From: an uncultured delta proteobacterium
GTDB taxonomy: Bacteria; Desulfobacterota; Syntrophorhabdia; Syntrophorhabdales; WCHB1-27
Reading direction: 5' to 3'
NCBI GenBank assembly: GCA_963810935.1
Contig: CAWEPK010000005.1
Location: 224,001-288,000 of the forward strand
Length of the DNA: 64,000 nt
In this document: positions 45 to 62,415 of the stretch, piece after piece
Position numbering within the stretch: the first letter of the stretch is position 1
Layout of the letters: each line of letters starts with the position of its first letter
The notes under the pieces: generated by a model
Seen by the model: only the letters and a program-made list of their open reading frames with translations
Database searches by the model: none
What the model was told of the DNA's origin: nothing
Program-made: the position numbers and the translations under genes

Positions 45-278
45 AACTCCTTTATATATCATATACGGCCCTTAAGCAATAGTTTTCGCGGTTGTACAAA
101 CCTTTTTCCGGCCGGGTGAGTATATTAGGCTTGATAATCATTTTCAAGAATTATTTGTCACACGCTTATGGAAGACGCGCAACGAAGACGACGACGAAGC
201 TATGCGAAAAAGGTCCCGGCCCCATTCTCCTGCTTCTGCCGCTTCCACTTTCCCGCCTTGTATAGTATCATTTTACTA

Positions 279-43135: not shown

Positions 43136-43185
43136 TCCCTAAACCTGTCCCGTTGATCTTAACATATCCTGCCCGGCGATACCTT

Positions 43186-44802: not shown

Positions 44803-44813
44803 GCGCGTGTCCG

Positions 44814-45938
44814 CTAATTGCTGCACGATGCCGCGCCTTGCCCGTCGCCCAGGCATTCCCGGAACAGCCTTTCGTAGTCGTCCGTTACCTTTTCCCACGT
44901 GAAGCGCTCAAGGACCGTCTGCACCGCCCTCTTTCGATAATATTCAACCGGTACGTCCCCGCGGACGACCATCTCCATCTTCTCGCGCAGGTCGTCCTCG
45001 CTCTCTTTTTCGAAAACTACCGCTGCGTCGCCTGCGACCTCGATGTTTTCCGGCGTCCCGTTCACGATCACGCAATTGCCGAAGCCCATAGCCTCGATAA
45101 GGGCCGGGTGCGTCCCGCCGACGGACGTCGCGTGCACGTAACAGTAAGCGTGGGACTGTAGCTCCCTGTAGCCCTTGCCGAACACGTAGCCTGCAAATAC
45201 GATCCTCGGGTCCCTGGTGCTTTTCAACGTCTCGATATAGTCCCTGGCGTAAGGGGCGTCGCCCACGATCACCAGCTTCATGTCCGTGGCGACCTTCTCG
45301 AATGCCTTAATGACGAGGTGGGCGTTATTTTCGGGCTCCAGCCTGCTCACATAGAGGATATAGCGGCCGGGCTCTACGCCGAGGTTCTCCAGGGCCTCGA
45401 TGCTCGGGGCCTTCTCAACGGTCGCGCCGTACGGGATGAAGACCGTCTCTTTTCCGTACGTCTCCCTGTAGTAATCCCTGATAACCAGGGCGTCGGAAAG
45501 GGTCACGTCCGGGAAGACGGTAGAGCAGATCTCCCCTATCCTGTACCATGCCCTGCCAAGGGCGTTCCATTTGGCCCGCTTCCTCTCGATCCCGTCGACG
45601 TTGATGACGACCTTCTGTCCGCCTATCCGGGGGATGAACGATAACGGACCGTTCGCGGCATTGCAAAGCAGGACGATGTCAAAGCGACGGAAAAGGGCGT
45701 GGACCAGGGAAATAAACGTGTGCACCACCGTATCGAGGTATTTGTGGCTGATGGTGGGCAGGATCGCGATCTCAACGCCTTTATAAAATTTCTGCCGGTA
45801 ATCGATTATGTTCGACCTGCCGTAAACCGTTACCTCGTGCCCTTTTTCAACAAGCCGCGTGCCCAGCTCTTCGGCAAAGGTCTCGAACCCTCCGTAACAT
45901 GCAGGTATGCCCCTGGTCCCGATGATGGCTATCTTCAT
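44814..45938 (-). CDS. Glycosyltransferase family 4 (DUF1972 type)
   Basis: IIGTRGIPACYGGFETF, VSRLEPENN, VGGTHPALIEAM. Confidence 0.93.
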   Translation of the reverse strand: MKIAIIGTRGIPACYGGFETFAEELGTRLVEKGHEVTVYGRSNIIDYRQKFYKGVEIAILPTISHKYLDTVVHTFISLVHALFRRFDIVLLCNAANGPLSFIPRIGGQKVVINVDGIERKRAKWNALGRAWYRIGEICSTVFPDVTLSDALVIRDYYRETYGKETVFIPYGATVEKAPSIEALENLGVEPGRYILYVSRLEPENNAHLVIKAFEKVATDMKLVIVGDAPYARDYIETLKSTRDPRIVFAGYVFGKGYRELQSHAYCYVHATSVGGTHPALIEAMGFGNCVIVNGTPENIEVAGDAAVVFEKESEDDLREKMEMVVRGDVPVEYYRKRAVQTVLERFTWEKVTDDYERLFRECLGDGQGAASCSN

Positions 45939-45945
45939 GGCCGGC

Positions 45946-46731
45946 TCATGCCGTCCGCTCCCCTACGATAGTGTAGGTGAGCCACTTCCGGCCCCGGTAT
46001 TTCTGCAAAGAGTAGCTGACTGTGGACTTTCCGAACCCCAGTGTCCGCAAAAACGCCTTGACCACCGCCGGTGACAAGAACCACCAGGTATCCGGGTGCT
46101 CGAAGCCGCTCACCCTGGGCACGAAGGTCATGTGCGGCCGGGGCAGAATACCGCTCAGCAGATAATAGGGAATGAACCGGTTCCAGATCACGTCCGTCAC
46201 TATGACCTTCTCGCGCGTCAGGGAAAGGGCGCTCTGGAGTGCAGCGAAAGGATTTTGGAGATGGACAAGGACTGCGCAGAAGGTCGTTATATCGACCTCC
46301 CCTATCTCGCGCGGGACGTGGTAAGTCGTTCCATAGACCACCCTGCTTTTCGACTCGTACACCTTATGGGAGAACCAGAACGCATTATTTATCTTCGCCA
46401 GGCCTTCTTTAAACTCCTCAACTTTTTTGTCGTGATCGTATCCGGCGAAAGGGACCACGTCCCATGTATAATTTTCGTTAAGATCGTAAGCAACCACGTC
46501 CGCGCCCTGCTTTTCCATGTAGAAACAGAGACAGCCGCTTGCTGTGCCTATCTCGAGCACCCTCTTGCCCGAAAAATCGACCCTGCCGAGATAATCGGCC
46601 TCCCGGCCCCTAAGGTCCCACGATCCTTTCATCGTCCCGTATCCAGGCAGGTCCATCGTGTGGTAGAAAATACAATCACCGATGTCCTCGACGATTTTGG
46701 GCGTTGCGTAAATAATACGACCCCCCGCCAT
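45946..46731 (-). CDS. Class I SAM-dependent methyltransferase
   Basis: FYHTMDLPG, KRVLEIGTASG, VLVHLQNP; AGGAGG RBS. Confidence 0.85.
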   Translation of the reverse strand: MAGGRIIYATPKIVEDIGDCIFYHTMDLPGYGTMKGSWDLRGREADYLGRVDFSGKRVLEIGTASGCLCFYMEKQGADVVAYDLNENYTWDVVPFAGYDHDKKVEEFKEGLAKINNAFWFSHKVYESKSRVVYGTTYHVPREIGEVDITTFCAVLVHLQNPFAALQSALSLTREKVIVTDVIWNRFIPYYLLSGILPRPHMTFVPRVSGFEHPDTWWFLSPAVVKAFLRTLGFGKSTVSYSLQKYRGRKWLTYTIVGERTA

Positions 46732-46810
46732 ACTACCTCCTCCTGCCATACAGCGCACCTCTCCCGTGTCCGAATTGCTCTATTGTTTATTCGTCCGATT
46801 GGGTCCCGGC

Positions 46811-49204
46811 TTAAGGATGACTGCCTTTTCTTGCGGCCAGGTATCCCCATGTGTAGGCGTTCGGGCCTATTGTCTGGTGTACCGTAAACTCGCACATAAT
46901 GGGATACCAGTAGACGTCCCAGTAGGTTTCCATCACGGGCCACTGCCTCGATTCGGGATAGCAGTACCGGGCCAGCGTCCGGTACGGCTCGGAATCGAAG
47001 CCCCCGACGAGGCTGATATCGAGGGGGCCCAGGACCGTAATCCCCGGCGGGGGCGCCTGGTTCGTCACGCGGGAATCAAAATGCATCGGGTGCAGGGGGC
47101 TTTTCCATCCCAGACCCGTAGTGTAGCTCATGTTGAGCGGGTTGGCGCCGGCCCCGGCCTGGCAGGCAAGGACGGCCGCCTTCAGGTACTTCGCGTCCCC
47201 CGTCATATAGTGGGCGCGCAGCACGTTTATGCTGTCCGATACGGTGAACGCGCCGGCGAAAGGCGGTCTGTACGGGTCCTTCATCCAGCGGAAGCCCGCC
47301 TGCTGCTGGGCATTCATGCGCCTTCCGGCTTCCTTGACAATGTTCTCCCTGCAGCGCGCCTTCAGGCCGTTGTCGATTGCGCTTTGCCTGTCTGAGCGTA
47401 TGCAGACCCAGGCGGCCTCCATCTGGCCGGAAGTTTTGGGGCGGTCCGGGCCGGAGAGGTCGATTGAAGCCAGGAATATATCGCGCCACGATTTTGCGCC
47501 TGTAAGGCGAAGCAGCTCCGCTGCAGCGAGGCCCCTCGATTCTTTCACCGGGTCGGGCCAGCGCTCTCTTGTGCCCAGCTCCCGCTCGGCCCAGGTCATG
47601 GCCGAAAGTGCGCTTTCACCGTATTCTTTCGACAAGGCGGGACTGCGCGTCTTCAGGGTGTAAGCGGCAGCGGCGGCAGCGGCGGCATATTCGTAGCTCG
47701 ACCATGCATCGGGCGCATAGGCCATGACGAGCTGCGATTCCTGCCAGCTTCCCTCCCCGTAACGCGGGTGGGCTTCCGATTCGATGCCGCCCCGCACCCC
47801 GCCCTCTTTCGTTTGGAGCCGCTTGTAAAAATCGACGTCCCAGAGGGCCTCCCGGATGATGCCGGGGAGGCCGTCAGGGCCGGGGAGGTTTAAATCCAGG
47901 CGCTCGAAATAATCGGGGAAAAGCTCGTAGAGCTCGAGGAGCGTCCTCGAAACAGAGAGGTGCTGAATGCGCCGGTCCCAGTCGCCTGCGTCGCAATATC
48001 CGCCCCATGCATTGGGGACTATATCGCCTGTCCTTCCCTGCACCAGTTTTGTGAAGGCATCGTTTTTCGCCTCCAGGCCGTTCGATGTCTCCATGAGCGT
48101 CGTTTTTGAGGCGTAGACCCTGACGCCGTCTTCCGGATGGAAGTTCCGCGGCCGCCGGAAGTTCGTATACGGCGGCCCCAGCTCAATGCCGCTCCTCTGG
48201 TGGTAAAGTCCCCGCACGGAGACGTAGAATGCCTTCTGCCAGACATCGTCCCGGATATCGAAAGGATGGGAGCAACCGACGCCTTCAACGCAGACCCGGT
48301 ATGTCCCAGGCTTAGCAAGGGGGCTGAAGTCCGCAATATAGACGTCGACGCCGTTGAAGTTCCTGCCGTAAGTATCCTCGGTGGGATCGCTGCCCCGTTT
48401 TGTAAGTTTTATGCCGCCCCTGAACTGAACGGCATCGCTTTTGTCATCAATGACGGAGAACGGGGTCCCCTCGCGGAAGGCACGCGCCCCTCCGCTGCCC
48501 ATCCAAAGGGATAGGAAAGCCGTTTTTGACGGGTCGTCCGGCCTGAAGCCTATCTGGCTCACGTGGACCGCCTCGCTGATGGTGCGGGCAGGGTCGTATA
48601 CGAAAGCCTGCTCCGGGACGCCGGGGACGGGGAGCCTGACCGAGTACTTCTTCCCGGGCTTCAAGGGGTCGGCCAGCTTCAGGTAGACCGTGTGCTCAAC
48701 CGGCGCGTCGAAAGTGCCCCCCATACAGGCAAGGTCGGTCGGCTTGCTCTTGCGGAAGACTGTTTCAGGGCTCTTGGGAGAGGCATAGGCCGCATCGTCG
48801 GCTGAAGAGATGGCGTACCCCTCGGGCCTGTCGAAAAGCGCGGGGTCAGGCCTCTCGCCGGCAACCCGGTCGAGGGATATCATCTTGCCCTCCTTGCGGA
48901 TGAGGGCCCCCACCATCTTAGTCCCCCGGAATACCCAGAAGGTGCCTTCCTCTCCCGTGGCGACCCTGTCGTTCTTCTGCTGGCTGTAAGGCTCCTGTCT
49001 TCCGTACTCGACGCGTCCCGCCCTTATCGTTATCGAAACGATATTCGGCCCAACAACGCCTATGGACTCGACTGCCGGCTTTTCAGGCTTTGCGGCCTCG
49101 GGCGACGGGCCGGCAGGCTTACCGCAGAAAGCGAAAACGAATGAGGCGGCAAGCAGGAGGGCAAGCCGGACCCGGCCGGGTGTTTTATATTGGTTCTGAA
49201 TCAC
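46811..49204 (-). CDS. Secreted glycoside hydrolase family 9 with Ig-like domain
   Basis: VHVSQIGF, LYHQRSG, WGGYCDAGDWDR, GANPLNMSYTTGLG..P.H, CEFT. Confidence 0.88.
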   Translation of the reverse strand: MIQNQYKTPGRVRLALLLAASFVFAFCGKPAGPSPEAAKPEKPAVESIGVVGPNIVSITIRAGRVEYGRQEPYSQQKNDRVATGEEGTFWVFRGTKMVGALIRKEGKMISLDRVAGERPDPALFDRPEGYAISSADDAAYASPKSPETVFRKSKPTDLACMGGTFDAPVEHTVYLKLADPLKPGKKYSVRLPVPGVPEQAFVYDPARTISEAVHVSQIGFRPDDPSKTAFLSLWMGSGGARAFREGTPFSVIDDKSDAVQFRGGIKLTKRGSDPTEDTYGRNFNGVDVYIADFSPLAKPGTYRVCVEGVGCSHPFDIRDDVWQKAFYVSVRGLYHQRSGIELGPPYTNFRRPRNFHPEDGVRVYASKTTLMETSNGLEAKNDAFTKLVQGRTGDIVPNAWGGYCDAGDWDRRIQHLSVSRTLLELYELFPDYFERLDLNLPGPDGLPGIIREALWDVDFYKRLQTKEGGVRGGIESEAHPRYGEGSWQESQLVMAYAPDAWSSYEYAAAAAAAAYTLKTRSPALSKEYGESALSAMTWAERELGTRERWPDPVKESRGLAAAELLRLTGAKSWRDIFLASIDLSGPDRPKTSGQMEAAWVCIRSDRQSAIDNGLKARCRENIVKEAGRRMNAQQQAGFRWMKDPYRPPFAGAFTVSDSINVLRAHYMTGDAKYLKAAVLACQAGAGANPLNMSYTTGLGWKSPLHPMHFDSRVTNQAPPPGITVLGPLDISLVGGFDSEPYRTLARYCYPESRQWPVMETYWDVYWYPIMCEFTVHQTIGPNAYTWGYLAARKGSHP

Positions 49205-49210
49205 GGTTGT

Positions 49211-49732
49211 CTAAGGACCGGTAGGATCACGTATGAAAGTGGACGGCGACGGGGGTACATCGTCGCATGCGACGACTTCGACTGCAACCCACATGCAGTT
49301 GTTCATGTTCGCGAGCCTTACGGGAATTAACCGATAGATATTCCCGTCGCACGCGAATTCGGGGGGCCGGACGTTAACGACTGCGCTGGCGTTCGCGTCC
49401 TTCCGCAGCGCCTCTATATCGTACTGGCAACTGAAGACCGGCACGCCGGGGTTGAGGACGACGTATTTTCCCTTAATCACCAGGTCCAAAAAATCGACGT
49501 GGAGCGGGTCGGGATGGAGGTCGAGCATGTTGAGGGTCTGGTTGGCCGTTTCGCCCTTCCTGTACATCCGCGCCTCGTGCCTGAACAGGTAACAGACACG
49601 CTCGATCAGGTTCGGCTCGGAAACGGCGAAACTGGCCCTTTTCACGTAACACTGGGTAGACCATGCCTGTAAGGGACAGAAAATGACAGCGAGCATGATA
49701 AGACCGATCGCTCGCCGTATTGCGTGCTTCAT
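49211..49732 (-). CDS. Secreted hypothetical protein
   Basis: AGGAGG RBS, signal peptide, several Cys. Confidence 0.65.
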   Translation of the reverse strand: MKHAIRRAIGLIMLAVIFCPLQAWSTQCYVKRASFAVSEPNLIERVCYLFRHEARMYRKGETANQTLNMLDLHPDPLHVDFLDLVIKGKYVVLNPGVPVFSCQYDIEALRKDANASAVVNVRPPEFACDGNIYRLIPVRLANMNNCMWVAVEVVACDDVPPSPSTFIRDPTGP

Positions 49733-49791
49733 TATTGCCTCCTTAAACTGCGGACGCCCCGTGCGCCCCTATTGTAACATAATTCGGGATG

Positions 49792-51288
49792 TCAGCCACC
49801 CGTGCGCTCAAGGGCCGCAGGATCGACGTTTCTTCCGCGGGGAGCGCCCGTTTCCCTGTTCTCTTTCTCGGAGAATAAGGCCAGGAAGCCGGCAGGGGCC
49901 GCCCGCACGACGAACACCAGCAACGCGTATAGACCCAGGGAAATCAACACCCTGAGAATAGGCATAACGCCCGAAAGGAGAACGTTCAGCACGACATAAA
50001 GAAGAACGTTCAGGCAGCCTATCTTCACCCACTTCCGCCATCGGAACACATTGCCCAGGCGGCCCGTCACGTAGCAGAACGTGACGGTTGCCAGGAATGT
50101 CTCGCAGCCCAGGGCGACCCATGCGGCGCCCCGGAAGCTGTAATGGGGGATCAGGAAATAATTGAAACCGAGGCAGAGCGCTGCCGCGCTCGCCGCGCTC
50201 CAGTAAGCATACTTGACGGAACCGATGCCTATGGCGGCGGCAGACGAGAAAAGAGAATAAAAGATAACGACGCAAATCCATGCCATGATGTCGAGGACGG
50301 GCGCGGCGGCCGCGAAGGCCTTACCGAACAGGAGGGTAACAACGCTCCCCGACACAACGGGAACGACGATGGCAATGGGGACCGCAACGATGGCAACGAT
50401 CTCGATCAGGGGAACGAACATCCGCTTAAGCGCGTCGACGCCGCTCAGAGCCCTTGCTGCGAAGACCGGTATGAGAGGCGCGGAAAGGGCCGCCGCAAGC
50501 AGGGCCGAAAGCTCCACGAACCTATAGCCCGCGTTGTATATGGCTACGGCATCGTCCGATTTCATGGCGGCCAGCATTAGGATCGGGATACGCGCCGTAA
50601 CGATGACGAACAGGGACGAAACACCCAGGGGGACGGCCAGCTTGAGTATGCTTTTGGTGAGGGGCAGGTCCGGAACAAAGACCGGCCTTATGGACCTCCA
50701 GGACAGAGAGAATGCAACGATTGCATATATCGTGTTCGACACTACAAACGCACACACTATGAATAGAAGGTTTTTTGTGAACATCAGGACCAGGGTCAGG
50801 AAAAGGCAGTAGCTCACGCCGTAGGAAACCGACGAATAAGTGGAGTGCCACGGTCTCCGGTATACCTGGAAAATGGGCTCGAAGAAGCGGGCGGCGAGGA
50901 ATGGGATGGCCAGCATGCCCGGAAGAAGGATGGGAAACAGGTCCCTCCTTAGATAGAAGGCCGCAATAATGCCGAAGGGGATCACCGCCAGGCTGAGGGC
51001 CACCCTCAGGAACAGGAAATTGCCCCAGTACAGGCCCGCCTGCTTCTCTTCCTGCGTTATGCCCCTGCCCAGGACCGAGCACATGCCGGAGTCCGCTATG
51101 GCGGCGAAAAGGCCCAGAAAGGCGAGCACATATGAGAACTTACCGAAGAACTCGATGCCCGCTATGCGGCCGATGATAATATAGGAGACAAAATTGGCGC
51201 CGAAAGAGACGGCCCTTCCGATGGCCTGGCTTGCCAGGTTGAGAAAGTACTGGCTCTCAAGGCTCTGTCGCCTGGCGGTCCGGATCAC
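49792..51288 (-). CDS. wzx: Wzx-type flippase
   Basis: About 14 TM segments; FGKFSY, AVAIYNAGYRF, LLFGKAF..AAPVL, LIPHY..GAA. Confidence 0.88.
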   Translation of the reverse strand: MIRTARRQSLESQYFLNLASQAIGRAVSFGANFVSYIIIGRIAGIEFFGKFSYVLAFLGLFAAIADSGMCSVLGRGITQEEKQAGLYWGNFLFLRVALSLAVIPFGIIAAFYLRRDLFPILLPGMLAIPFLAARFFEPIFQVYRRPWHSTYSSVSYGVSYCLFLTLVLMFTKNLLFIVCAFVVSNTIYAIVAFSLSWRSIRPVFVPDLPLTKSILKLAVPLGVSSLFVIVTARIPILMLAAMKSDDAVAIYNAGYRFVELSALLAAALSAPLIPVFAARALSGVDALKRMFVPLIEIVAIVAVPIAIVVPVVSGSVVTLLFGKAFAAAAPVLDIMAWICVVIFYSLFSSAAAIGIGSVKYAYWSAASAAALCLGFNYFLIPHYSFRGAAWVALGCETFLATVTFCYVTGRLGNVFRWRKWVKIGCLNVLLYVVLNVLLSGVMPILRVLISLGLYALLVFVVRAAPAGFLALFSEKENRETGAPRGRNVDPAALERTGG

Positions 51289-52082
51289 TTCGCCTCCCGG
51301 TCGTCGCTTAGCGCATCGGCTGATTTTATGATGACGATGTGGCTGTGCGATACGTAGGCGCCGGTGAAATACGAAGGGCGGTAAGGGGCGATGCCCGAGA
51401 CCGGACGCGTTATATCTCCCATGCCCTGTTCGTCCATGAGCTGCTTGACGAGTCCTACCATGCCGTAGTCGTGGCTTTTGAAACGCTGTCTGAGGCTCGC
51501 ATACTTACGAAGCCGCAAGACCCATTGCGTGCCGACCTCTTTTCCCGTCATCCGCGCGGCCAGGCGCAAAAGGAGCGAAACGACCCTGTAGCGGAAGGAC
51601 GGGCGGCCGTACTGCCGGTACCTCTTTCCGTCAGGCCAGTCGCCCCAGTAGCCCGTGCCCCAGTCCTCGATAGCGTAAATGCCGCCCGGCTTCAGGTGTT
51701 TCAGGAACAGGTGCCAGAAGGAGATCCGCGTCTGCTCCCCCATGTGGGAGCAATCGTCGATGATTATGTCGAAACCGCCGGGCGCGCTCTCCGCGCGAAT
51801 GCGGTCGAGCAGGCGCAGGTCGTCCTGCATCCCCCGGTAAACCCTGATGCGTCCGGTCTTATCCTCTATCGGGCACGGGTCCACGTCCAGCCCGGCTATC
51901 GTCCCCTTCTCGAAATAGTCGCGCCACATCAGCAACGAGCCGCCTTTCAGTATGCCCAGCTCCAGAAGCTTTACTTCTTTTTCCGCAAGGGGTGCGAAGA
52001 ATTTTTCGTACGCCCGCAGATAGTGGCTCAAATCTATTTTGTCCGTGTCGTACCACTGTGCGTCGAGTTTTTTCGTGCTCAT
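51285..52082 (-). CDS. Class I SAM methyltransferase (MycE/TylE sugar O-methyltransferase-like)
   Basis: TDK..HY..YE, LLELGILKGGSL.MW.DYF, FDIIIDDCSH, LKPGGIYAIED. Confidence 0.82.
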   Translation of the reverse strand: MSTKKLDAQWYDTDKIDLSHYLRAYEKFFAPLAEKEVKLLELGILKGGSLLMWRDYFEKGTIAGLDVDPCPIEDKTGRIRVYRGMQDDLRLLDRIRAESAPGGFDIIIDDCSHMGEQTRISFWHLFLKHLKPGGIYAIEDWGTGYWGDWPDGKRYRQYGRPSFRYRVVSLLLRLAARMTGKEVGTQWVLRLRKYASLRQRFKSHDYGMVGLVKQLMDEQGMGDITRPVSGIAPYRPSYFTGAYVSHSHIVIIKSADALSDDREAK

Positions 52083-53227
52083 GCAGCACCCAGGTACAGC
52101 TCTTTGATTCTCCGGCCGACATGCTTCAGCGAGAAGTTTTCCGTCGCCCGTTCTCTCCCGGACGCTCCCATATCGGACATCCGGTTCCGGTTCCCTATCA
52201 TCGAGTAAATCGCGTCTCGCAGGGCTGCGCCGTCCCCCGGAGGGACGAGGATGCCCTGCCTGCCGTCTTCCACCGCCTCGGGGATACCGCCCGTCCTGGA
52301 AGCTATAACGGCCTTCCCCGATGCCATCGCCTCGAGGATGGTTATCGAGAAGGTTTCGAACAGCGAAGGAAGGACGAAGCAATCGATGGCGCCGTAAAAT
52401 GCCGGCAATGTATGATTGGGAACGGGGCCCAGCAGGTGAAAATTGGAGGGCCTCCCCTTTTTTTCTATCTCCTTTGTAAAAGACGCATCGACCGGGCCGG
52501 CGGCGAAAAACTCCGCCTTGCCCTGCATACCCCTTGCCGCTTCCATCAGCAGGTCCGTCCCTTTTGCCGGTCCCAGCCTTCCCACCGTTCCGACCCTCGG
52601 GAGGCGCCTGTCGTATAGCTCTTCGAAGGCCACCTCGCTTCTATCGGCGGGATGGAATAGCTCCGTGTCTACGCCGTTGTAAATGACCTCCACGCCCGGT
52701 TTGGCGCCGAGCCTTTTCTCGAGCTCGCCCTTGCTCCACGCCGAGCAGGTGACCATAACGTCTACCGACCTGTTTATCATACCCTTCAAATGAGCGTAAA
52801 TCGGAGAAAGCCAGGGGCCGTGGAAGTGGATGATCTTCCTTGCGCCGTTGCCTATGAAGGGGAAAATAAGGCTTTCGGTCGCGTAATTGACCGCAACCAC
52901 GTCTGACCGCCCCATCAGTTTCTTAATCGTCCCGGGAGGCGTAAGCAGGCTTAAGGCCTCGACATCGAACTCGTTCACTTTACTGCGGAGCCAGCCGCGG
53001 ATGAGGCGCCGGGAGAAGGCGGAATTCCTCGATATGTAGCGCAGAGCGTGCAACACAACGCCCGAGGACGCAAGGAGCCTCTTCGTATCGCCGGTCGGCT
53101 CTCCCTTGCCGGAAACGATATGGACTTCGCATTCACCAGACAGGACCCGCGCCGTGTTCAGCACGAACGTCTCCGCACCTCCGAAGCATGTGGCGGCCGA
53201 TCCTGATACAATGCAAACCGCCTTCAT
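52079..53227 (-). CDS. Glycosyltransferase family 4
   Basis: GGAE, IYNGVD, GRLGPAKG, FVLPSLFETF...LEAMASGK. Confidence 0.93.
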   Translation of the reverse strand: MKAVCIVSGSAATCFGGAETFVLNTARVLSGECEVHIVSGKGEPTGDTKRLLASSGVVLHALRYISRNSAFSRRLIRGWLRSKVNEFDVEALSLLTPPGTIKKLMGRSDVVAVNYATESLIFPFIGNGARKIIHFHGPWLSPIYAHLKGMINRSVDVMVTCSAWSKGELEKRLGAKPGVEVIYNGVDTELFHPADRSEVAFEELYDRRLPRVGTVGRLGPAKGTDLLMEAARGMQGKAEFFAAGPVDASFTKEIEKKGRPSNFHLLGPVPNHTLPAFYGAIDCFVLPSLFETFSITILEAMASGKAVIASRTGGIPEAVEDGRQGILVPPGDGAALRDAIYSMIGNRNRMSDMGASGRERATENFSLKHVGRRIKELYLGAA

Positions 53228-54201
53228 CTGCCGGCCGTCCTGCTGCGCAGCTCGCGCCGGATGCTCTCGCGCTCCAACGATTTAAAAAGTTTCCTGTAGA
53301 ACAGCCGGGCCAGCCCCTCGTGGCAGCCGCAAAGGCGCCTCGCCGCCAGTATAATGAGCGGTCTTGTTACGCTGTTGATCGCCATGTCCGCAAGGAAATA
53401 TCGTAGCCTTTTGGCCGGGGAAGAGCCTTTGTAAAACCCCACAGTCGAAAGCAGCCGTTTCAGTTGCGGTGATTTCTTGTACCAGACCGCGAGGGTTTTC
53501 CCGCTTAAGCGCGCCAGCCTGACGTAATCGTCCTCCGACAGGTAATGGTAGTGGCAGCCCCGGCACTCCTTGTCGTAGACGATCCTGAGGCCGTGATGCG
53601 AGAGCCTTTCCGCGAGCTCGATATCGTCGTTGTACCGGAGGTCTTCATCGAAAAGACCATATTTCATCAGAAAGCTTTTCTTTACGGAGATGTTGCAGGT
53701 ATAGAAGGCGTTCCAGGGCAGCTCCGTCGTATTCTCCCAGAGGGCGTAGGCGGAATCGAGGTGCAGGCCGGCAAAGAGCGACGGAGGCAGGTCGGGAGAG
53801 ATGGTGACGTTCCCGAGGAATGCGCACGGTTCATCCGCATATGTGAGATGCGCGGCCAGATGTCTTGCAACGACGTCGGGCGCTGCTATCGTATCGTCGT
53901 TCAGGAAAAGCAGGATATTGCCGCGGCAGCATTTGATCGCCCTGTTGCGCGCAGCGTTCTGTCCGGAATTTTCCTGCCTGATGAATTGAAGGTCGAGGCT
54001 GCTTTCCGCCGAAAAACAGCGAACGACTTCCGCAGTCTCGTCGGCAGATCCGTCGTCCACAACGATTACCTCGAAGGCGTCCTTCGGCGCGGTCTGCCCT
54101 TCCAGGGCTTGCAGGCACTTCAGGAGGGTTTGCGCCCGGTTATACGTCGGGACGATAACGGTAAGCTTGTTTGCGGCGCTGTCGTCTGTCATATCAGCCA
54201 T
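53224..54201 (-). CDS. Glycosyltransferase family 2
   Basis: VIVPTYNR, VVDDGS, ARN, FLNDD, FDE..DDIEL. Confidence 0.93.
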   Translation of the reverse strand: MADMTDDSAANKLTVIVPTYNRAQTLLKCLQALEGQTAPKDAFEVIVVDDGSADETAEVVRCFSAESSLDLQFIRQENSGQNAARNRAIKCCRGNILLFLNDDTIAAPDVVARHLAAHLTYADEPCAFLGNVTISPDLPPSLFAGLHLDSAYALWENTTELPWNAFYTCNISVKKSFLMKYGLFDEDLRYNDDIELAERLSHHGLRIVYDKECRGCHYHYLSEDDYVRLARLSGKTLAVWYKKSPQLKRLLSTVGFYKGSSPAKRLRYFLADMAINSVTRPLIILAARRLCGCHEGLARLFYRKLFKSLERESIRRELRSRTAGR

Positions 54202-54213
54202 TTGGAAACACGT

Positions 54214-55348
54214 TTATCGGGCGCCCCGCGCGACGGCCTCAAAGACCCGCGCCACGTCGTGCGCCGCCGACTCCCACGTGAAGCGGCCGGCCCTATCCAG
54301 ACCCTTGTTTATGCACTTCCGGCGAAAGACATCGTCGGATAAGATTCTTTCCATGGCGCCTGTCAGGGCATCGACGCTGCCGGGCCTCACGAGCAGGCCC
54401 GCGTCCCCCACGACTTCGGGTAGTGAAGTGCAGTCGGAGCTGACAACCGGGCAGCCGCACGCCATAGCCTCGAGGCACGGCAGGCCGAACCCTTCGTAAA
54501 GCGACGGATAAGCAAAAACGTCCGCAAGGCCGTACAGCGCGGGCAGGTGGGCATGCGGGACAAGACCCGTGAATTTAATCTCTTTCGCGTACGGGGAGCC
54601 GGTGATGGCCGCCTCATCCTCTGCCGGCAAAAAATCCCTGGGGCCCGTTATAACGAGACTGTGTCCGTACCCTTTAGCCTTCAGTGCGTCGAAGGACTTG
54701 ACCAGCCCCGTAAGGTTCTTTCTCCTGTTGATGCGGCCGACGAAGAGAATATACCGCTCGCCGCCTGAAATGGCGTATCTCTCGATGGTCCGTCTCGCCG
54801 CCGCCCTGTCTTCGACGGGCCTGAAAACCGGATCGACTCCGTTGTAGCTCACATATATGCGGCCGGGCGGCAGGTGATAGGCATCCGCGATCTCGCGGCG
54901 CGAATATTCGGAGACCGTGAGGACGGCGCGCGCCCTCCGGGCAAAAAACGGCACAAGAAGACGGTCTTTGACCCTGTCGAATGCGGAAAAGCTGTCGGGC
55001 ACATGGAGGTAGGAAAGGTCGTGTACTGTCAGAATAAGCTTTCCCCTGTAAATGGGCGGGCCGTAATAGGTGGCGTGGAGGAGGTCGATTGCGTCCCTGA
55101 ACGTCTGAAGGCCCAACAGGGGCATGCGGACGAAGGGAGACGGTGAGGGGACGACGCGCAAGTGCACGTTTGGAAGCCCCCCGAGCCTGCTGTAATAGGG
55201 GTTGGACGCGTCGGTGATATAGAGGAAGTATTCATGCCCCGGGGCAATCCGCACCAGTTGCTCGACGATATTCCTTATATAAGTGCAGTTGCCCGTTCCC
55301 TCCCGCTCTGCCGCATGAAAATCGATTCCGATGCGCGAGGAGACTCAA
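54214..55348 (-). CDS. Glycosyltransferase family 4 (GT1_MtfB-like; likely 1-nt indel near the start)
   Basis: Upstream RIGID..TG..Y in frame; TVHDL, FVGRINRRKN, PSLYEGFGLPCLEAMACGCPV. Confidence 0.9.
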
Positions 55349-56289
55349 GGCGACGTGCCCGTATTCGGGAAATGCGCCAGGACAAGCTTCAGGTACTGCC
55401 CCATTCTGCGCCCCTTTTCCCTGGCCTTCTGGTCCCTCGATGCCATAAACCACAGTTTGTAAAGCGCCGCTCTGAGGGCGAAGTTGACGCAGAACAGGAT
55501 ATCGAACAGCACCAGTCCTTTGCCGCTGTTGTATCGCCCGTACAGGCTGCGCATATTCTCGAGCCACGCGAAGGAGAGGCCCCCGTTTACCGGGGCCGCC
55601 CTCGTCGCCCCCTGAAGATGGACGATGCTCAGGCCCGGCAGGTAGAATATTCTGTGCCCCGACGCCCGCATGCGGCACCCCCATTCCACGTCGTCGGCAT
55701 ACAGAAAAATGCTCTCGTCCATCATTCCCACTTCCGGGAGGATGGAGCGCCTGACGAGGAAATCGGCGCCGCAGATCCAATCGACTTCCATGGGCCCTCT
55801 GAAGCCGGAATAGTTCAGGTATAGGGTCTTTACACCTGGGACAATTTTCGACAGGAAGAGGGCATAGCTCGCCACGCTCGCGAGGGTGGGCCTGAAACCG
55901 GCGTCCCCTACCTGGTGGCTGCCGTCCGGGAAAATGAGCCTGCACCCGCTCGCGGACGCCTGCGGGTGCTCGTCCATGAAACGCAGCCAGGCGGCCAGCG
56001 TGTGCCGGTCCGGCATCACGGTATCGGGGTTAAGGAGGAGGACGTACTCCCCCGAGGCCTTCTCCAGCGCCAGATTGTTTGCCTTGGTGAACCCCAGGTT
56101 TTCGGCGGCCACCACCAGATCGACCCGGGGGAATTGCCTGCGTACCATGTCTACCGACCCGTCGGTCGATGCATTATCGACGACGATCACTTCAAACGGG
56201 GCAGACAGGTCCTGGCTGAAGAGAGAGTCGAGGCACTGACCGAGCAGCTCCGCTGTATTCCAGTTTACAAGGACGACGGAGAGCTTCAT
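55345..56289 (-). CDS. Glycosyltransferase family 2 (rhamnosyltransferase-like)
   Basis: VNWN, VVDNAS, NLGFTKANN, LLNPD, WICGA, FLYADDVEW. Confidence 0.93.
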   Translation of the reverse strand: MKLSVVLVNWNTAELLGQCLDSLFSQDLSAPFEVIVVDNASTDGSVDMVRRQFPRVDLVVAAENLGFTKANNLALEKASGEYVLLLNPDTVMPDRHTLAAWLRFMDEHPQASASGCRLIFPDGSHQVGDAGFRPTLASVASYALFLSKIVPGVKTLYLNYSGFRGPMEVDWICGADFLVRRSILPEVGMMDESIFLYADDVEWGCRMRASGHRIFYLPGLSIVHLQGATRAAPVNGGLSFAWLENMRSLYGRYNSGKGLVLFDILFCVNFALRAALYKLWFMASRDQKAREKGRRMGQYLKLVLAHFPNTGTSP

Positions 56290-56292
56290 ACC

Positions 56293-56390
56293 GCAATTAT
56301 CGGGGCTCAGCGCCCCCTCGCCGGGCGAAGCCTCGACCCTTCCCTCCTTACGTCGGGCGGGTTCTGCCCCGCCCGCGCGGAGGAGGGGGT
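56293..56390 (+). repeat. Dispersed REP-like repeat, copy D (5' box conserved, remainder divergent)
   Basis: GCAATTATCGGGGCTCAGCGCCCCCTC plus hairpins, intergenic within the EPS operon. Confidence 0.7.
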
Positions 56391-56392
56391 GG

Positions 56393-57877
56393 CTACGAGC
56401 CGGGCCCTTCGTCATCGCTTGCGTACCTGATGGATATGGCGCCAATGAGACCCATCAGGCTGTAGAAAAGCATCGACGTACTCATAAGCATGCGAAAGCC
56501 CGGGTCGACGAATCCATGAATCGCGTGGGCTACCATACCAGCGATGGCCCCGATTACTACGGCCCTCTCCCAGGGCCCCGCCCTCACCAGGCATTTCAGC
56601 CCGACAAAGAAGGATGAAAGGAAGAGCCCGCAGAAGGCGACAAGGCCGATTGTGCCCGTCTCGCACCACACCCACAGGTAAAGGTTGTGGACGACGTGCT
56701 GGACGTCGCCTTCATCCTTAAAAACCGACGAGCCGCCCGTTGTATCGTAAGTCCTGAAAACCCTGGCAAAGTTATTGAGGCCGACCCCGGTAATCGGGAA
56801 TTGCCTGACGATCGAGAAGGCGGCTGTATTCAGCGGCCGCCTCGACCTTGCCGACACGTCCTCGAAAGTAAGGCGGCTCCGGATAGCGGGGACCACGACA
56901 AGAACGAACGTCAGGGTAACGAGGAATAGCCCCGGTATCAGGTAAGCATACGCCTTCGGCTGCGCCAGCTTTTTGGCGTAGACGACAAAGAACACGAGGG
57001 GGAGGGACAAGGGAAGCGTAATCCACGCCCCCCTCGACATCGTAGTGACTATACCGACTATGCCGGCAACCACGGCAATCAGATAAAACAGCTTGAGAAA
57101 CGCCCGTTCCTCGACCAGGAACATGGCGAATGCAAATGGGATAAGCATCTCGAAATAGTAGGCCATTACGTTCGGATGGCCGATCGTCCCTCCGGCCCTC
57201 GTGAGAAAAGACCAGTACACGGGGGCAAGCCTCTCTCCCAGCACTGTAAGGCCGAGGGCCTGGCCGGTCCTGTACTGGTAAAAAGCGATGGCCGACTCCA
57301 GTATGAGGCCGAGGGCCAGGGAAAAGATGAACGTCGATATCTGCTCCTTGCCCTTGAGGTTCATGATAATGAAGAAAATAAGGAACAGCATCGTCAGGCG
57401 GACGAGCTCCAGGACGACCAGCTCCGGGGAGCTTGCGTTATAGAAGCTCAGGCAGCCTGCCATCATATACAGGATAGGCGCCCATAAAAGATATTTGTCG
57501 TAACGGAAAAGCGGGCCGGAAGCCGCGCGGCCGTGCTGGTACCAAAAAATAACGTACAGGACGAACGCGCTAAGGAGGGTGACCCCGATATCGACGCTCG
57601 TGACACCGACGTAGGCACGGTAAAAGAGGTTGACATCAAGGTTGAACGGGATGCCGAGACCCAAAAAGAGCAGGGCCCATCGCGCGATCCCCTGCTGCGA
57701 GGAAAAATAAGAGAGAAAGATTACGCCGGCCAGTATAAAGGAGACGGCGAAAACCGACTTGAATCCGTATTGCGCCAGGGTGATGGCGAGGACCACGGAA
57801 ATCGATCCGAGGATAAAGGAAACGAAGGCCTTTAAATAGGCCCTTTCTACGGGGGGTGTTGTCTCTCGATAATGCAT
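56393..57877 (-). CDS. O-antigen ligase / Wzy_C-family polymerase
   Basis: RAGGTIGHPN, TMSRGAW, GVGLNNF, VHNLYL..ETGTIG. Confidence 0.88.
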   Translation of the reverse strand: MHYRETTPPVERAYLKAFVSFILGSISVVLAITLAQYGFKSVFAVSFILAGVIFLSYFSSQQGIARWALLFLGLGIPFNLDVNLFYRAYVGVTSVDIGVTLLSAFVLYVIFWYQHGRAASGPLFRYDKYLLWAPILYMMAGCLSFYNASSPELVVLELVRLTMLFLIFFIIMNLKGKEQISTFIFSLALGLILESAIAFYQYRTGQALGLTVLGERLAPVYWSFLTRAGGTIGHPNVMAYYFEMLIPFAFAMFLVEERAFLKLFYLIAVVAGIVGIVTTMSRGAWITLPLSLPLVFFVVYAKKLAQPKAYAYLIPGLFLVTLTFVLVVVPAIRSRLTFEDVSARSRRPLNTAAFSIVRQFPITGVGLNNFARVFRTYDTTGGSSVFKDEGDVQHVVHNLYLWVWCETGTIGLVAFCGLFLSSFFVGLKCLVRAGPWERAVVIGAIAGMVAHAIHGFVDPGFRMLMSTSMLFYSLMGLIGAISIRYASDDEGPGS

Positions 57878-57916
57878 ATGCTTGCTACGACACAAAAGGG
57901 ATAAAACGCGGTGCGG

Positions 57917-58660
57917 TTACAACCTCTTGTAGATGGCCTCCGGAATCACGAACCTCTGTTTGTTGAGGATGGCGCCCAGGATACGCACATTGGCGCTTTC
58001 CAGCTCCCTCTTGGCCGATCTCGCAACCTCCCATCGCGTTTTGCCTGCCTGTATCACCATGATCAACCCGTCCATCTTGCTTGCCACAAGCAGGCTTTCC
58101 GGGCTTCCAAGGATTGAAGAAGAATCGAAGATAATCAGGTCGAACCGGTCGCGCAGTTTTTGCATGATCGTAGAAAACTTTGCCGATTCATACAGGGCGA
58201 CGGGGTTATCGAACGTTTGCCCGGCTTGCATGAAATAGAACCTTTTGAAAGCGACTTCACTGGCCGCGTCCTCTACGTCGCCCTTGCCCTGGATCAGGTC
58301 GACCAGTCCTTTCTTCCTTTTCTTTACTTCGAACTGGTAGTGCAGGATGGGCGCTCTTAAATTGCCGTCGATGAGGATAACGCTTTTCGGGCAGCTTGTG
58401 GCGAAGGCCGTCGCGAAGTTGAAGGCCATCGTGGACGCGCCTTCCCCTCCCCTTATGCCGGCGACAGCTATCGCGAACCCCTTCTTTCCCTTGGCCGCCC
58501 TGGTGTTTCCTTCATGTTCCCTGACGGCGCCCTCCCTGTCCGCCTGCATCAGGAGCTTCCACAGCACCTTATAGAAATGGTCATGCATGAACGTCAGGTT
58601 GCGAAGCTGACTGCCGCCGAGCCAGCCGAGCATGGGCATTTCTTTTTCCTGGTACGCCAT
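57917..58660 (-). CDS. CpsD/CapB-family tyrosine-kinase-like protein with degenerate Walker A
   Basis: GIRGGEGAST, LIDGNLRAP, FDLIIFDS, ILGAILNK. Confidence 0.85.
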   Translation of the reverse strand: MAYQEKEMPMLGWLGGSQLRNLTFMHDHFYKVLWKLLMQADREGAVREHEGNTRAAKGKKGFAIAVAGIRGGEGASTMAFNFATAFATSCPKSVILIDGNLRAPILHYQFEVKKRKKGLVDLIQGKGDVEDAASEVAFKRFYFMQAGQTFDNPVALYESAKFSTIMQKLRDRFDLIIFDSSSILGSPESLLVASKMDGLIMVIQAGKTRWEVARSAKRELESANVRILGAILNKQRFVIPEAIYKRL

Positions 58661-58788
58661 CGATTCACCGTTGTTTCGACTGCGGACAGGCATCTGTTAC
58701 AACCTCACGCCCGGGAGTCGCACTTCTTTCCCGGTCCCTTCATAAACGAAGCGGCGTTCGTAAGCATAGAGCATAAAGCAAAAGCCTC

Positions 58789-60817
58789 TCATTTCCGGAC
58801 CTCACTGTAAGGGCCGGTATTTCCACTGCCCGGCCTCGGCGTGCCGCCGTTGATATCGGCGCCCTGAGGCTGTGCACCCCTCAATTGCACCTCCATCTGG
58901 CCTCTGACCCGCTGAAGCTCCGCATCTATCTCGGCCCGCTCCTTTTCAAGCGTAGCGCGCCGCTGCTCCAGATCGTCTGCATGCACGTGCATCTCATCCC
59001 CCCCGACGGCAGCGCTCGGCGCGGCCTGCTTGGGGCGATCTTCACCGAGGAGGGCAGCGGGGTACACGGACGCAAGGGCGACCTGCCCGTAAGGCGACGC
59101 GCTCCGGCTCCCCGCCTGGGCGGTAAGGATAGATTCACTCAGCACCACGGGGTTCTTATGCTCGTATAGCATATAGCTGCCCATCCCTACCCCGAGCATC
59201 ACGAAGAAGATCAGCATATTCATGCCGCCGGGCATAAAGGAGCCGCGCTGCGGCTGCGGAGCCGGCTGCATTTGATTGTCACGCCCGAAGGCCCTGCGCA
59301 AGTTTTCCAACCCTCTTTTCACCCCCTGACTGACGGGTTGCAATTCGGGTCCGATCAGGAGCGGCATTGAAAGCAGGAGGGGGACGCCGAGGACATCTAC
59401 AATATCCTCGTTGCCCCTGAACGTATGGTTGAAGAACTCGTTCACCGCCGAGAAGCCGAATCCCAGCAGGAGGCCGACGAGGGCAGAGATAAGCACGATA
59501 AGGTTCTTCTTGGGATAAGAAGCCGTCAGCGGCGGGATCGCGGGCATCGCTATTTTCACGTCGGAGATGCGCCGCGAGTCGAGGTCGTCGGAGATGCGCA
59601 GGTCTTCCGCTTTCTTCTTATAGATCTGGTAGTTCTGCTCCGTGAGGTCCCTCTCCCTCTCGAGTCTGTCTCAGCGAGACCGTCTTAAGGTTGATGTCCT
59701 CTATCTTCTTCTTCGAATTGTCCAGTTCACGCTCCAGGCTGGCTTTCCTCGTCTGGAGGAGAGAAAGGTCCAGGTTCGATATGTTGATGAGGCTCTCGGT
59801 CTTCTGCCTGCGCAGGCCGGCTATCTGGCCGTCGATCGCCTTGATCTCGTCCGATTTCGTCGTGTAGAACTTCAGCATCCTCTCGCGTTCAGCCCGGAGA
59901 CGGAAGTACGACTCATCGATCGCGCGCAGGTACGTCTGTTTATCGACTGTAAGCGAGCCCAGCTCCGGTGTCTCGACCCATCCCCGGCTGCCTGCCATCT
60001 CTCTTATCTTGCTCATCTTTGTCTGGGACTGCGAATAATCGACCGTCACAACGTTCAACTGGGTCTGCAGGTCCGCCATGCTGCGCAACAGAAGCTCTTT
60101 CTGGAGGACGATGTTGGCTATGTTCGTGCCCGAGAGGAAGTTCTGAAGCTTGTCCTCTGCATCCCTCAGCTTCTTCTCGAACAGTGTTATCTGGTCTATG
60201 TAGAAGCGGTACGATTTCTGAGATTCGTAAACGAGCATATGCTGCGTCACGAACTCATCGGCGTAGACATTCGCCACGACGGCGGCGAACTTGGGGTCGG
60301 TCCAATCGAAGGCGACCGAGATCATGTCCGTATCTTCGAGGTACGTTACATGGAGTGCGTTAAGGAACGCCATGACGGTGCCTTTTTCAGGACCCACCGG
60401 CCTCGAAGAAAAACCCACCAGGGATAGGAGGTTCCCGACCACATTTTTGATGCCTTCGAAGATTCTGCCGACGATCGACTCATCCGTCTTTAGGGGCTCG
60501 ATCCTGTCCTTCAGCCGGGCGATTACCTTCTCGGTAAGGTACTGGCCCTTGAGAAGCTCCATCTCGTTGCGGATGTTCTGCGTCCTTTCCTGGAAAACGA
60601 CATTGTACATTTCCGGCCGGAATTGCTCCATCGACGATACCTGGGGCTTGCCCATCTTGACGAGGAGCTTCGTTTCCGCCCGGTATACCGGCGGGGTAAT
60701 TACGCAGTAAACGAGAGACATAACGATGGCCGTCAGAAAGACGGTAGTAATGACGACCCTATTCTTAAAAAAGATATAGAGTACGTCCCTGGCGGTCAGT
60801 AATTTCTTTGCTTCCAT
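58789..60817 (-). CDS. Wzc/GumC polysaccharide co-polymerase (frameshifted near 59660)
   Basis: N-terminal TM, PVYRAETKLLV, coiled-coil periplasmic domain, PKKNLIV TM, EFFNHTF..DI..LGVPLL. Confidence 0.88.
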
Positions 60818-60887
60818 TTCCCTTCTCCCGTCTCTACCCCGCCCTTCGTGAGAGCCAAAGGACCAGACGGCGTTCCGCTAAAGCCCA

Positions 60888-62222
60888 TTATAGCCGCCCG
60901 TAATCAACAAGCAGGTAGCCGCTGGGACTGACAACGACGGCCTCGGGCTTCACTTTCAAGACTTCGTCCGCCATAACGCCGATCCGGTAACTCCCAAAAA
61001 TCTTGTAGGCGTAAATGCCTATGCCGAGAGGATGTGTACCTATGCGCCTTATATCGGTTTTCAAGCGCCTGTCCGAGGGGGTCGTCGTGACGATCGTGGG
61101 CTGGTGGAGCACGTAGGCGAACCCAAGCGACGCGCTCTCGCCCTGATACAGGAAAAGCTGCTTAATATACTGGTCAACCCACATATCCATCTTCGCGATG
61201 GTCGTCTTCGGCACGTAGATAACGGCGTTGTTGGGCACGATCATATCCTGCTCGAGGCTCAGGCCGCTGAACATCTTGAATAAGTCCATCGTGCGCACCA
61301 TCGGCTCGTTCTTCTCGTTCCAGTACAGGATCTTCACGTTCTTGAGCGTGCCCGTCGGCGACACGCCGCCTGCCTGCGCGATAGCCTGCAGCACGGTCGT
61401 AGGCTTCGGCAGCGGCACCGGGCCGGGCCGCGGCACTTCGCCGAAGACGAACGCCCTGCTCCCCCCCAGGCTGTCGATCAGGACCGACACTGTCAGGTTG
61501 TTGAACTCGTACCGGTATTCGTTGTTGATGGCGTCGTTCAGCTCGTCGATGGTCCTGTTCGCCGCCTTTACAGGCTTGAGGAGAGGCAGGTAGACGTTTC
61601 CGTCGGGGCCTATCGGGAAGAGCTTCGCCTGACCTCTCGGGGCATTCGTGATCGCCTTCTGTAGCTCGGTGATCTTTGAGGAGTATTTGTTGACGCTAAC
61701 CGTAATGATAGGCTTGTTGAGAATATCGGAGTAGGTCTTCCCCACGTTCGAGGCAAGCTCTTCCGGCCTTAAGCCCGCAGCCATGAAATCGCCCTTGATG
61801 GGCAGGGTAATTTTACCGTCCGGCCGGACGACGACGGTGCGGTTGATCTGTGGCTGGTAGAAGAAATCGACGTTCAGCTCGTCGTTCACGCCGATCCTGT
61901 AAGCCTGCGTCTCCGATACGAGCGAGAGGTGGTACATCACCTCGAGGCTGTCTCCGGGGGACAACCTGTAGCGCGTAAGGCCGTCTTTAGCCTCTCTTAT
62001 CAGGTTTTGCCGCAGCTTGGCTTTTTCGGCCTCGGGGAGGCTCTCGGTATCGGGAAGGCGAACCATCTCGCCGTCGGGCATACGCTTCACCTCACCGGTG
62101 CGAACCGGGGTGCATCCGCCAAAGACGACAAAAAGAGACAGGGCTGCTACAGGCAGGAATGATGAAAAACCTATGTATAACAATCTTTTCAAATTCAGCG
62201 GCGCATACAAAGAGCAACGCAT
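60888..62222 (-). CDS. wza: Wza/OPX polysaccharide export lipoprotein with C-terminal Peptidase_S74-like domain (start 62222 or TTG 62192)
   Basis: Lipobox FGGC; YRIGVNDEL..VRPDGKITLP; VFGEVPRPG..QAIAQAGG; then SDRRLKTDI..IGVMADEV..PEAV..GYLLVDY. Confidence 0.9.
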   Translation of the reverse strand: MRCSLYAPLNLKRLLYIGFSSFLPVAALSLFVVFGGCTPVRTGEVKRMPDGEMVRLPDTESLPEAEKAKLRQNLIREAKDGLTRYRLSPGDSLEVMYHLSLVSETQAYRIGVNDELNVDFFYQPQINRTVVVRPDGKITLPIKGDFMAAGLRPEELASNVGKTYSDILNKPIITVSVNKYSSKITELQKAITNAPRGQAKLFPIGPDGNVYLPLLKPVKAANRTIDELNDAINNEYRYEFNNLTVSVLIDSLGGSRAFVFGEVPRPGPVPLPKPTTVLQAIAQAGGVSPTGTLKNVKILYWNEKNEPMVRTMDLFKMFSGLSLEQDMIVPNNAVIYVPKTTIAKMDMWVDQYIKQLFLYQGESASLGFAYVLHQPTIVTTTPSDRRLKTDIRRIGTHPLGIGIYAYKIFGSYRIGVMADEVLKVKPEAVVVSPSGYLLVDYGRL

Positions 62223-62290: not shown

Positions 62291-62415
62291 AAAGCTTGCC
62301 CAAGGCGCTAATGTATAATTGGTACAATGATTAGGGTAGCTTGTCAAGCATTTTCTGTATTTTCTGCTTTACTTTTTACGTTATTTGCGTTTATTGTTAT
62401 TGTTAAAGGGGAGAG

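Follow-up and report, generated by a model that had tools for sequence, protein, structure and literature searches.

An OPX polysaccharide export protein with a short phage-type Peptidase_S74 domain at its C-terminus

We analysed a stretch of 64,000 nucleotides (the window) from an uncultured delta proteobacterium. Towards one end, a gene for a predicted OPX-type polysaccharide export lipoprotein continues in frame into a Peptidase_S74 domain, the self-cleaving chaperone module of phage proteins. Why should an export channel end in such a domain? Each part is a member of an established family, and on two orthologs the databases already carry labels for both. To our knowledge, little is understood of the way in which the C-terminal segment of an OPX lipoprotein enters the outer membrane by itself. 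As the first-pass annotation put it, this architecture is not known to have been described. A full-text search, with most subscription journals outside its scope, found no paper on an OPX-S74 fusion. The term 'S74' is absent from the accessible main text of the OPX classification (PMC9603273), whose supplementary tables could list the architecture.

The fusion gene and its export body

The features of the locus are as follows.

60888..62222, minus strand: OPX-S74 fusion gene encoding 444 aa, its start placed at the ATG at 62222 by comparison with orthologs
62112..62222, minus strand: predicted signal peptide ending in the lipobox-like FGGC, with the Cys37 codon at 62112-62114 (sequence)
61692..61913, minus strand: first Poly_export (PF02563) domain (Pfam)
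61476..61670, minus strand: second Poly_export (PF02563) domain
61212..61457, minus strand: SLBB domain (PF10531/PF22461; Pfam)
61104..61202, minus strand: amphipathic helix and terminal strand, a putative outer-membrane beta-barrel strand, from alignment to the PslD membrane segment
61077..61103, minus strand: Thr/Pro tail QPTIVTTTP; unfused orthologs have this as their native C-terminus (that in G013 ends IITTTTP-stop)
60891..61076, minus strand: short Peptidase_S74 domain, 62 aa, with a predicted cut between Pro382 and Ser383
61074-61076 and 61059-61061, minus strand: codons of the predicted catalytic Ser and Lys of the S74 domain
58789..60817, minus strand: co-polymerase (Wzz/PslE-like partner) downstream of the fusion gene, split in the window assembly
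41687..58693, minus strand: rest of a Wzx/Wzy-type exopolysaccharide cluster (autokinase-like, Wzy-like, glycosyltransferases, flippase, priming phosphotransferase)

The reading frame runs from the OPX body through QPTIVTTTP into SDRRLKTDI...GYLLVDYGRL, exactly as first translated, with neither stop nor frameshift between. It closes with TAA at 60888-60890. A mechanical ORF listing gives a longer alternative frame from a TTG at 62327. HMMER searches, which had been proposed as a check, placed every family above its Pfam cut-off. PF02563 matched twice (E 3.6e-31, 107.6 bits) and the SLBB region matched PF10531 (38.9 bits) and PF22461 (30.9 bits). PF13884, the S74 family, matched residues 363-409 of a 424-aa stretch with 23.2 bits in context and 28.6 alone (gathering cut-off 22). 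The FGGC motif sits behind a hydrophobic stretch and its Cys is nearly invariant in 100 homologs. By analogy with PslD and Wza, Cys37 is probably lipidated.

The gene heads the polysaccharide cluster and the co-polymerase is encoded alongside. Relative to G012, a related genome, the latter carries a 1-nt insertion near 59665 that breaks it in two; in relatives it is a single ORF (677 aa in G012, 681 in L184, 678 in L187). The split is probably an assembly indel. A gene at 168-1906 (plus strand), which we take to encode a SelB-like elongation factor, appears in overlapping frames and is another likely indel error. Inside the cluster, the product of 46811-49204 (minus strand), lipoprotein-like and 797 aa long, weakly matches a cellobiosidase family (E 4e-12) and is possibly a periplasmic hydrolase analogous to PslG. 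Four further Poly_export genes of the same genome (C5:47524, C8:177450, C17:157879 and C8:501598) all lack S74. Their C8 and C17 copies have identical scores, a possible duplication or contamination, and one of the four falls in a 1,098-aa frame.

Indel errors close by, and an assembly contamination of 7%, could point to an assembly chimera or read-through artefact. However, contigs from three of the four sequencing runs examined bridge the junction without a gap (X2, X3 and X5; X6 had no coverage there). X5 and X6 were two of six runs whose word shares lay below 0.35. The contigs from DNA runs X2 (60874-61399) and X3 (60949-61399) do not differ from the window at any position; these runs belong to one study, possibly the source campaign. 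The X5 contig (60928-61114), from another study, has one difference and, being from an RNA library, is no proof of transcription. The bridging contigs, together with three diverged fused orthologs, refute the artefact, which we regard as practically out of the question. The fusion as first read is confirmed. In another assembly of an identical protein (P0007), a frameshift within SLBB (window position about 61297) leaves 320 aa. The X2 and X3 contigs side with the intact reading of the window.

The body had been likened to E. coli Wza. It is an OPX protein, but the Wza-type C-terminal helix was not borne out. In a sequence search of solved structures the best match was PslD (E 2e-15, query 197-372). 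Matches to Wza (E 3e-8 to 1e-6, query 203-344) end before the Wza membrane helix, whereas the PslD alignment continues to the last residues of PslD (240-253) and reaches GESASLGFAYVLH in the OPX body. According to the accessible text of PMC13434223, PslD is an octamer and residues 240-254 of each chain supply one strand of a parallel beta-barrel. Because GESASLGFAYVLH aligns to that strand, the OPX body probably ends in a PslD-type barrel strand and not in a Wza-type helix. The monomer model contains the helix before the strand, and strand and linker have pLDDT<50 (326-349 of 407). Foldseek with the full model against a PDB copy found Wza-type chains (Wza, 2J58, E 3e-12); PslD was not among the matches and nothing was found for the S74 part.

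The protein shares much with PslD of P. aeruginosa (9V6L/9V75; PMC13434223, in the portion available). Both are OPX proteins, the fused one a predicted lipoprotein like PslD, matched over PES, SLBB, terminal helix and strand, and both are set in a Wzx/Wzy cluster with a neighbouring co-polymerase. Unlike PslD, the fused OPX, for which octamer and barrel would hold by comparison, has two Poly_export domains, a longer N-terminus, the Thr/Pro tail and the S74 domain. Wza (2J58) is a Class-1 OPX with the same Poly_export and SLBB architecture. Its C-terminus is surface-exposed, and a His6 tag there lowers function in E. coli to ~20% (PMC9603273, accessible text).

A short S74 domain with phage relatives

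The S74 domain retains the residues expected of a self-cleaving enzyme. A Ser-x4-Lys dyad starts at its first residue and aligns, by profile, to those of MYRF and 3GUD. As first proposed, this is an S74-family domain: the Ser, the Lys and the Gly of GVMA are invariant in an alignment of 108 rows, from which two loci without the Ser were omitted. The dyad and the GVxA motif are shared with the K1F endosialidase (3GW6), the GA-1 neck appendage (3GUD), T5 pb1 and MYRF (7DC3), and the Pro-Ser junction is as in MYRF. Compared with these proteins, the domain is about half as long and has no trimeric coiled coil, tentacles or upstream triple-beta helix. Sequence and model agree that a C-terminal trimeric coiled coil is absent, the protein ending 62 aa past the Ser. 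No trimeric beta-helix or fibre lies upstream as a folding client; the OPX membrane segment and Thr/Pro tail are there instead.

These absences bear on the chemistry. In the available text of PMC8326128, MYRF is cut between Pro586 and Ser587, and S587A and K592A abolish cutting. Cleavage depends on the dyad and on the trimeric coiled coil (PMC8326128 and PMC3742443, in part). In T5 pb1 an Arg from the neighbouring chain is required and the Ser departs with the chaperone (PMC4690869, in part). To judge from its residues, the window domain would have kept the cleavage chemistry while the known trigger is missing. Release of S74 by self-cleavage, as suggested in the first-pass annotation, is plausible. 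The literature searched held no experiments, on cleavage or otherwise, with any member of the short S74 subfamily.

The nearest relatives are phage proteins. A search with the last 66 residues gave 807 matches among 882 candidates. Besides two fused orthologs, the 120 matches listed comprise 118 other proteins, with identities of 66-79%. All 22 scanned of those 118 matched phrog_6121 (virion structural protein), and most also matched phrog_4287 (DNA ejection protein). The identity extends across all 62 aa, and length, dyad and terminal position are the same; the difference is that these domains sit on phage proteins and the window copy on a cellular export protein. At least 510 viral stretches encode a relative of the domain. 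The donor was phage-like, probably the end of an ejection or virion-protein gene. Hence, the proposed phage origin stands, but the kinship with tailspikes and endosialidases gives way to one with virion and DNA-ejection proteins among the relatives listed. The domain had rightly been called a short form without coiled coil. It is not truncated, since in 97 of the 118 nearest non-OPX homologs listed the Ser begins a domain of exactly 62 residues; members of the subfamily naturally have no coiled coil. A Pro immediately before the Ser (P1) occurs in 6 of the 118 phage homologs listed.

Structural comparison gave fainter signals. Compared with solved structures as a single sequence, the domain had 0 matches at E<=10, and relatives were found by profile only. 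The profile matched four PDB sequences: a phage long-tail-fibre chaperone (1.5e-5), MYRF ICA (1.8e-4), the GA-1 neck appendage (0.0097) and a fibre protein (0.054). The domain model (pLDDT 86.6) has one 7-residue helix, with strands at its end. Its top structural match, MYRF ICA, is weak (Z 3.2, rmsd 2.8, 52 aligned). Predicted viral ICA-labelled proteins match well (TM 0.85), and the best ESM Atlas score, 0.77, serves as a lead only. Prediction of a three-copy complex scored 0.02 and 0.01 (mark 0.42); controls were not folded and the result bears neither way.

The domain is widespread. Its profile finds 54,706 cluster representatives at E<=0.001, a figure that takes in the long forms. When 79 S74 genome loci were clustered by their upstream part, 17 grouped with viral proteins. 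The remainder appear to fall into some 14 groups of cellular proteins unrelated to one another, in most of which a Thr/Pro or Ser/Gly tail precedes S74. These carriers include lipoprotein-like proteins of Rhizobium and Labrys, a FecR protein, a caspase-domain protein and two OPX groups. In phage ejection-type proteins of 1,200-2,300 aa, two internal copies were found (38 among 150 matches listed; 14 scanned), which suggests that short S74 processes ejection polyproteins. P0242-P0386 are candidate self-processing polyproteins: each of their two, sometimes three, internal copies comes after a pilot-like segment, and a lytic domain often lies further on.

Distribution, junction and selection

The fusion is not a one-off free of selection. 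Besides the window, fused orthologs occur in G012 (also found as L008 and L105; 97% identical), P0002 (85%) and P0003 (also L184; 83%). Unfused orthologs 79-87% identical also exist. The 97% relative is labelled 'delta proteobacterium', and homologs 62-69% identical are labelled Syntrophorhabdaceae. Only 2 of the 120 listed homologs of the whole protein carry a PF13884 label. The ortholog is present in three of 22 genomes of the family and fused in two; PF13884 occurs in these same 22 genomes twice, both times on the OPX gene. In the phylum, 15 of 401 sampled genomes match, with the S74 part covered in the source genome only. The 24 metagenome loci comprise a single fused one, 22 unfused and one that is cut.

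The junction is exact. Precisely where the fused gene has the Ser codon TCG, the unfused ortholog in G013 has a TAG stop. In a tree of 27 bodies with S74 removed, the four fused rows and the unfused P0004 and L185 make up a starred clade of six, and one of these two nested unfused orthologs stops exactly at the junction. Fusion state requires three changes in 200/200 bootstrap trees. Hence, there was one gain with two losses, or lateral exchange. The first-pass annotation entertained a role in assembly or gating. An essential role of this kind does not agree with the unfused orthologs nested in the fused clade, nor with the 118 of 120 listed homologs without the PF13884 label. The sisters L184 (fused) and L185 (unfused) have a body dS of only 0.18. 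Behind the unfused orthologs L009 and L185-L191 we found no recognisable decayed S74 remnant, short tblastn extensions being spurious. L185/L186:4120-4280 has a short Cys-containing tail in place of S74 and a different intergenic stretch, L185 being closest to fused L184; this suggests that the tail may be a swappable cassette.

Once present, the domain is under purifying selection. Its dN/dS was 0.23, 0.28 and 0.34 in three non-independent pairs of related sequences, against 0.06-0.08 for the body. Synonymous divergence between the window and L184 is lower in S74 (9/52 versus 115/266 differences, p=3e-4), also at fourfold sites (5/27 versus 64/129, p=0.003), and lies far below that to the nearest of 80 viral loci (50%). 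This supports one origin and hints at a recent tail exchange between lineages, but it is weak evidence because a similar dip occurs in 7/12 phage pairs and most planctomycete pairs. RNA structure was rejected as its cause (z -0.35). Codon usage in the segment is weakly anomalous: GC3 is 0.65 versus 0.83, only the 8th percentile of 62-codon windows. The source genome (93% complete) contains neither a donor prophage nor a second S74 copy.

Further OPX-S74 fusions occur in Planctomycetota (L148, L149, L170, L175, L212 and L213), and four of the 79 S74 genome loci are of this kind. In the planctomycete family 13 of 20 genomes match, at 14 places, of which 6 are fused, 6 unfused and 2 incomplete. 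Eleven more proteins of this type were found, eight labelled with both domains. These fusions likewise combine two Poly_export domains with a short S74 that begins where orthologs stop: NFF precedes the Ser in fused proteins, and unfused ones end NFN-, NTF-, NFF- or GGF-stop. They differ in their bodies (22-32% identical to the window's, in patches), in a helix-type C-terminal segment and in the S74 domain itself (30-32/62 identical). They have been retained over saturated synonymous divergence with low dN. An AU test on 37 chosen rows of 66 columns rejected a tree that groups both OPX S74 sets (p-AU 0.006). Hence, the fusion arose twice independently, in two phyla. It is real, conserved and convergent, yet optional, and is just one case among the many in which this promiscuous module has landed on a protein.

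What the domain may do

The explanation that we prefer, and to which we would give about an even chance, is a self-removing, dispensable cap that cuts between Pro and Ser and restores the native OPX C-terminus. Briefly, the 3' end of a phage ejection or virion-protein gene would have been joined once to the PslD-type OPX gene of this lineage, the catalytic Ser taking the place of the old stop codon. After export of the lipoprotein, the small domain would fold in the periplasm. Its Ser-Lys pair would cut at the Pro-Ser bond and leave OPX with the C-terminus of unfused orthologs. The trimmed protein would then assemble an ordinary octameric pore with the co-polymerase. Such a cap could be dispensed with, yet would have to stay catalytically intact while present, because an uncut 7-kDa domain behind a membrane-crossing segment would hamper the pore. 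This harm alone would account for both purifying selection and all-or-none loss.

For the self-removing cap we counted the invariant Ser, Lys and Gly, the profile matches to MYRF ICA and the fibre chaperone, the Pro at P1 in some listed phage homologs and, from the published work as far as accessible, the MYRF cut, the Ser lost with the T5 pb1 chaperone and the harm done to Wza by His6. The coincidence of junction and orthologous stop in both lineages, the dN/dS values beside the nested unfused P0004 and L185, and the internal S74 copies of phage ejection-type proteins, as expected of a coiled-coil-free processing module, also speak for it. Against it, characterised domains, in the sources as available, need a trimeric coiled coil and, in T5 pb1, the Arg of a neighbouring chain; both are absent and an octamer is expected. 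Solved ICA domains resemble it only weakly in structure, and dN/dS comes from three related sequences. In addition, a purely neutral tag would be less expected to have two OPX origins and to be the sole PF13884 in 22 family genomes.

The main rival builds on those last points. As an assembly checkpoint, or pro-domain, S74 would keep the terminal strand or helix masked while the protein travels through the Lol pathway, and would cut only once protomers gather. Outer-membrane insertion would thereby be coupled to oligomerisation or co-polymerase binding, and the domain would be useful, not essential. We consider this possible but doubtful. Two independent fusions on different OPX subtypes in different phyla would fit, as would the fused state of 6 of 14 planctomycete places at low dN, the confinement of S74 to OPX in the family and the finding that known ICA domains cut only after oligomerising (PMC8326128 and PMC4690869, in part). 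The low synonymous divergence of S74 could mean recent lateral spread of a favoured allele, but phage pairs show it too. Very close unfused orthologs are nested among the fused, most homologs lack the domain, and the capped cellular groups, mostly behind low-complexity tails, raise the prospect that the two OPX cases are mere tolerance. With similar reserve we entertain a wider proposal: short S74 is a distinct, coiled-coil-free self-cleaving module of phage ejection (poly)proteins, repeatedly recruited by bacteria, and on OPX an oligomerisation-triggered pro-domain that masks the C-terminus until the ring forms, convergent in two phyla on helix- and barrel-type OPX.

Were the domain never cut, it would remain on the pore, probably exposed to the outside, and decorate it variably for adhesion, as a shield against phages or as a steric lid, with the tail as a swappable cassette. 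The lack of both coiled coil and triple-beta helix, the strongly differing tails of close orthologs such as L185, and the surface exposure of the Wza C-terminus (PMC9603273, accessible text) are in keeping with this. We think it unlikely, given an invariant dyad and a junction that, in both lineages, coincides precisely with the predicted scissile bond. Moreover, a self-inserting segment would have to carry eight folded domains across the outer membrane, when, in the same source, even His6 impairs Wza. Homology to trimerising intramolecular chaperones would suggest that S74 folds OPX as it does tailspikes, a role that we judge highly improbable: there is no coiled coil, the model ends in strands, OPX proteins of known structure are octamers (PMC13434223, in part) and orthologs 79-87% identical manage unfused.

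If the self-removing cap is correct, its mutable, predicted catalytic Ser would offer a switch for trapping OPX before insertion. The case also draws attention to a very large short S74 subfamily that may cleave itself without the supposedly necessary coiled coil and leave a traceless C-terminus; the domain may resemble an intein-style hitchhiker or be of use as a tag that removes itself. Should the cap be no more than tolerated, it exemplifies a promiscuous module and not new regulation of a channel. A search of the podovirus paper PMC10386132, in its accessible part, found no passage on S74 or cleavage.

Other carriers of the domain vary in context. L118-L146, L137-L160 and the plasmid matches H41-H70 encode Rhizobium/Labrys lipoprotein-like proteins in which Ser/Gly linkers lead to a terminal short S74; their annotation reads 'tail fiber domain-containing protein'. 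At L111:2561-4192, L155:2633-4267, L169:338-1096 and L161:3797-4534, S74 follows a FecR protein with Thr-rich repeats, a caspase or an IPTL-CTERM protein, and a tandem pair also occurs. In Gamma- and Betaproteobacteria, short peptides with what we take to be a lasso-type leader are joined directly to short S74 (L120, L123, L125, L131, L133, L140, L147, L153, L163, L164, L166, L168, L174 and L176), and some of these loci have altered dyad motifs.
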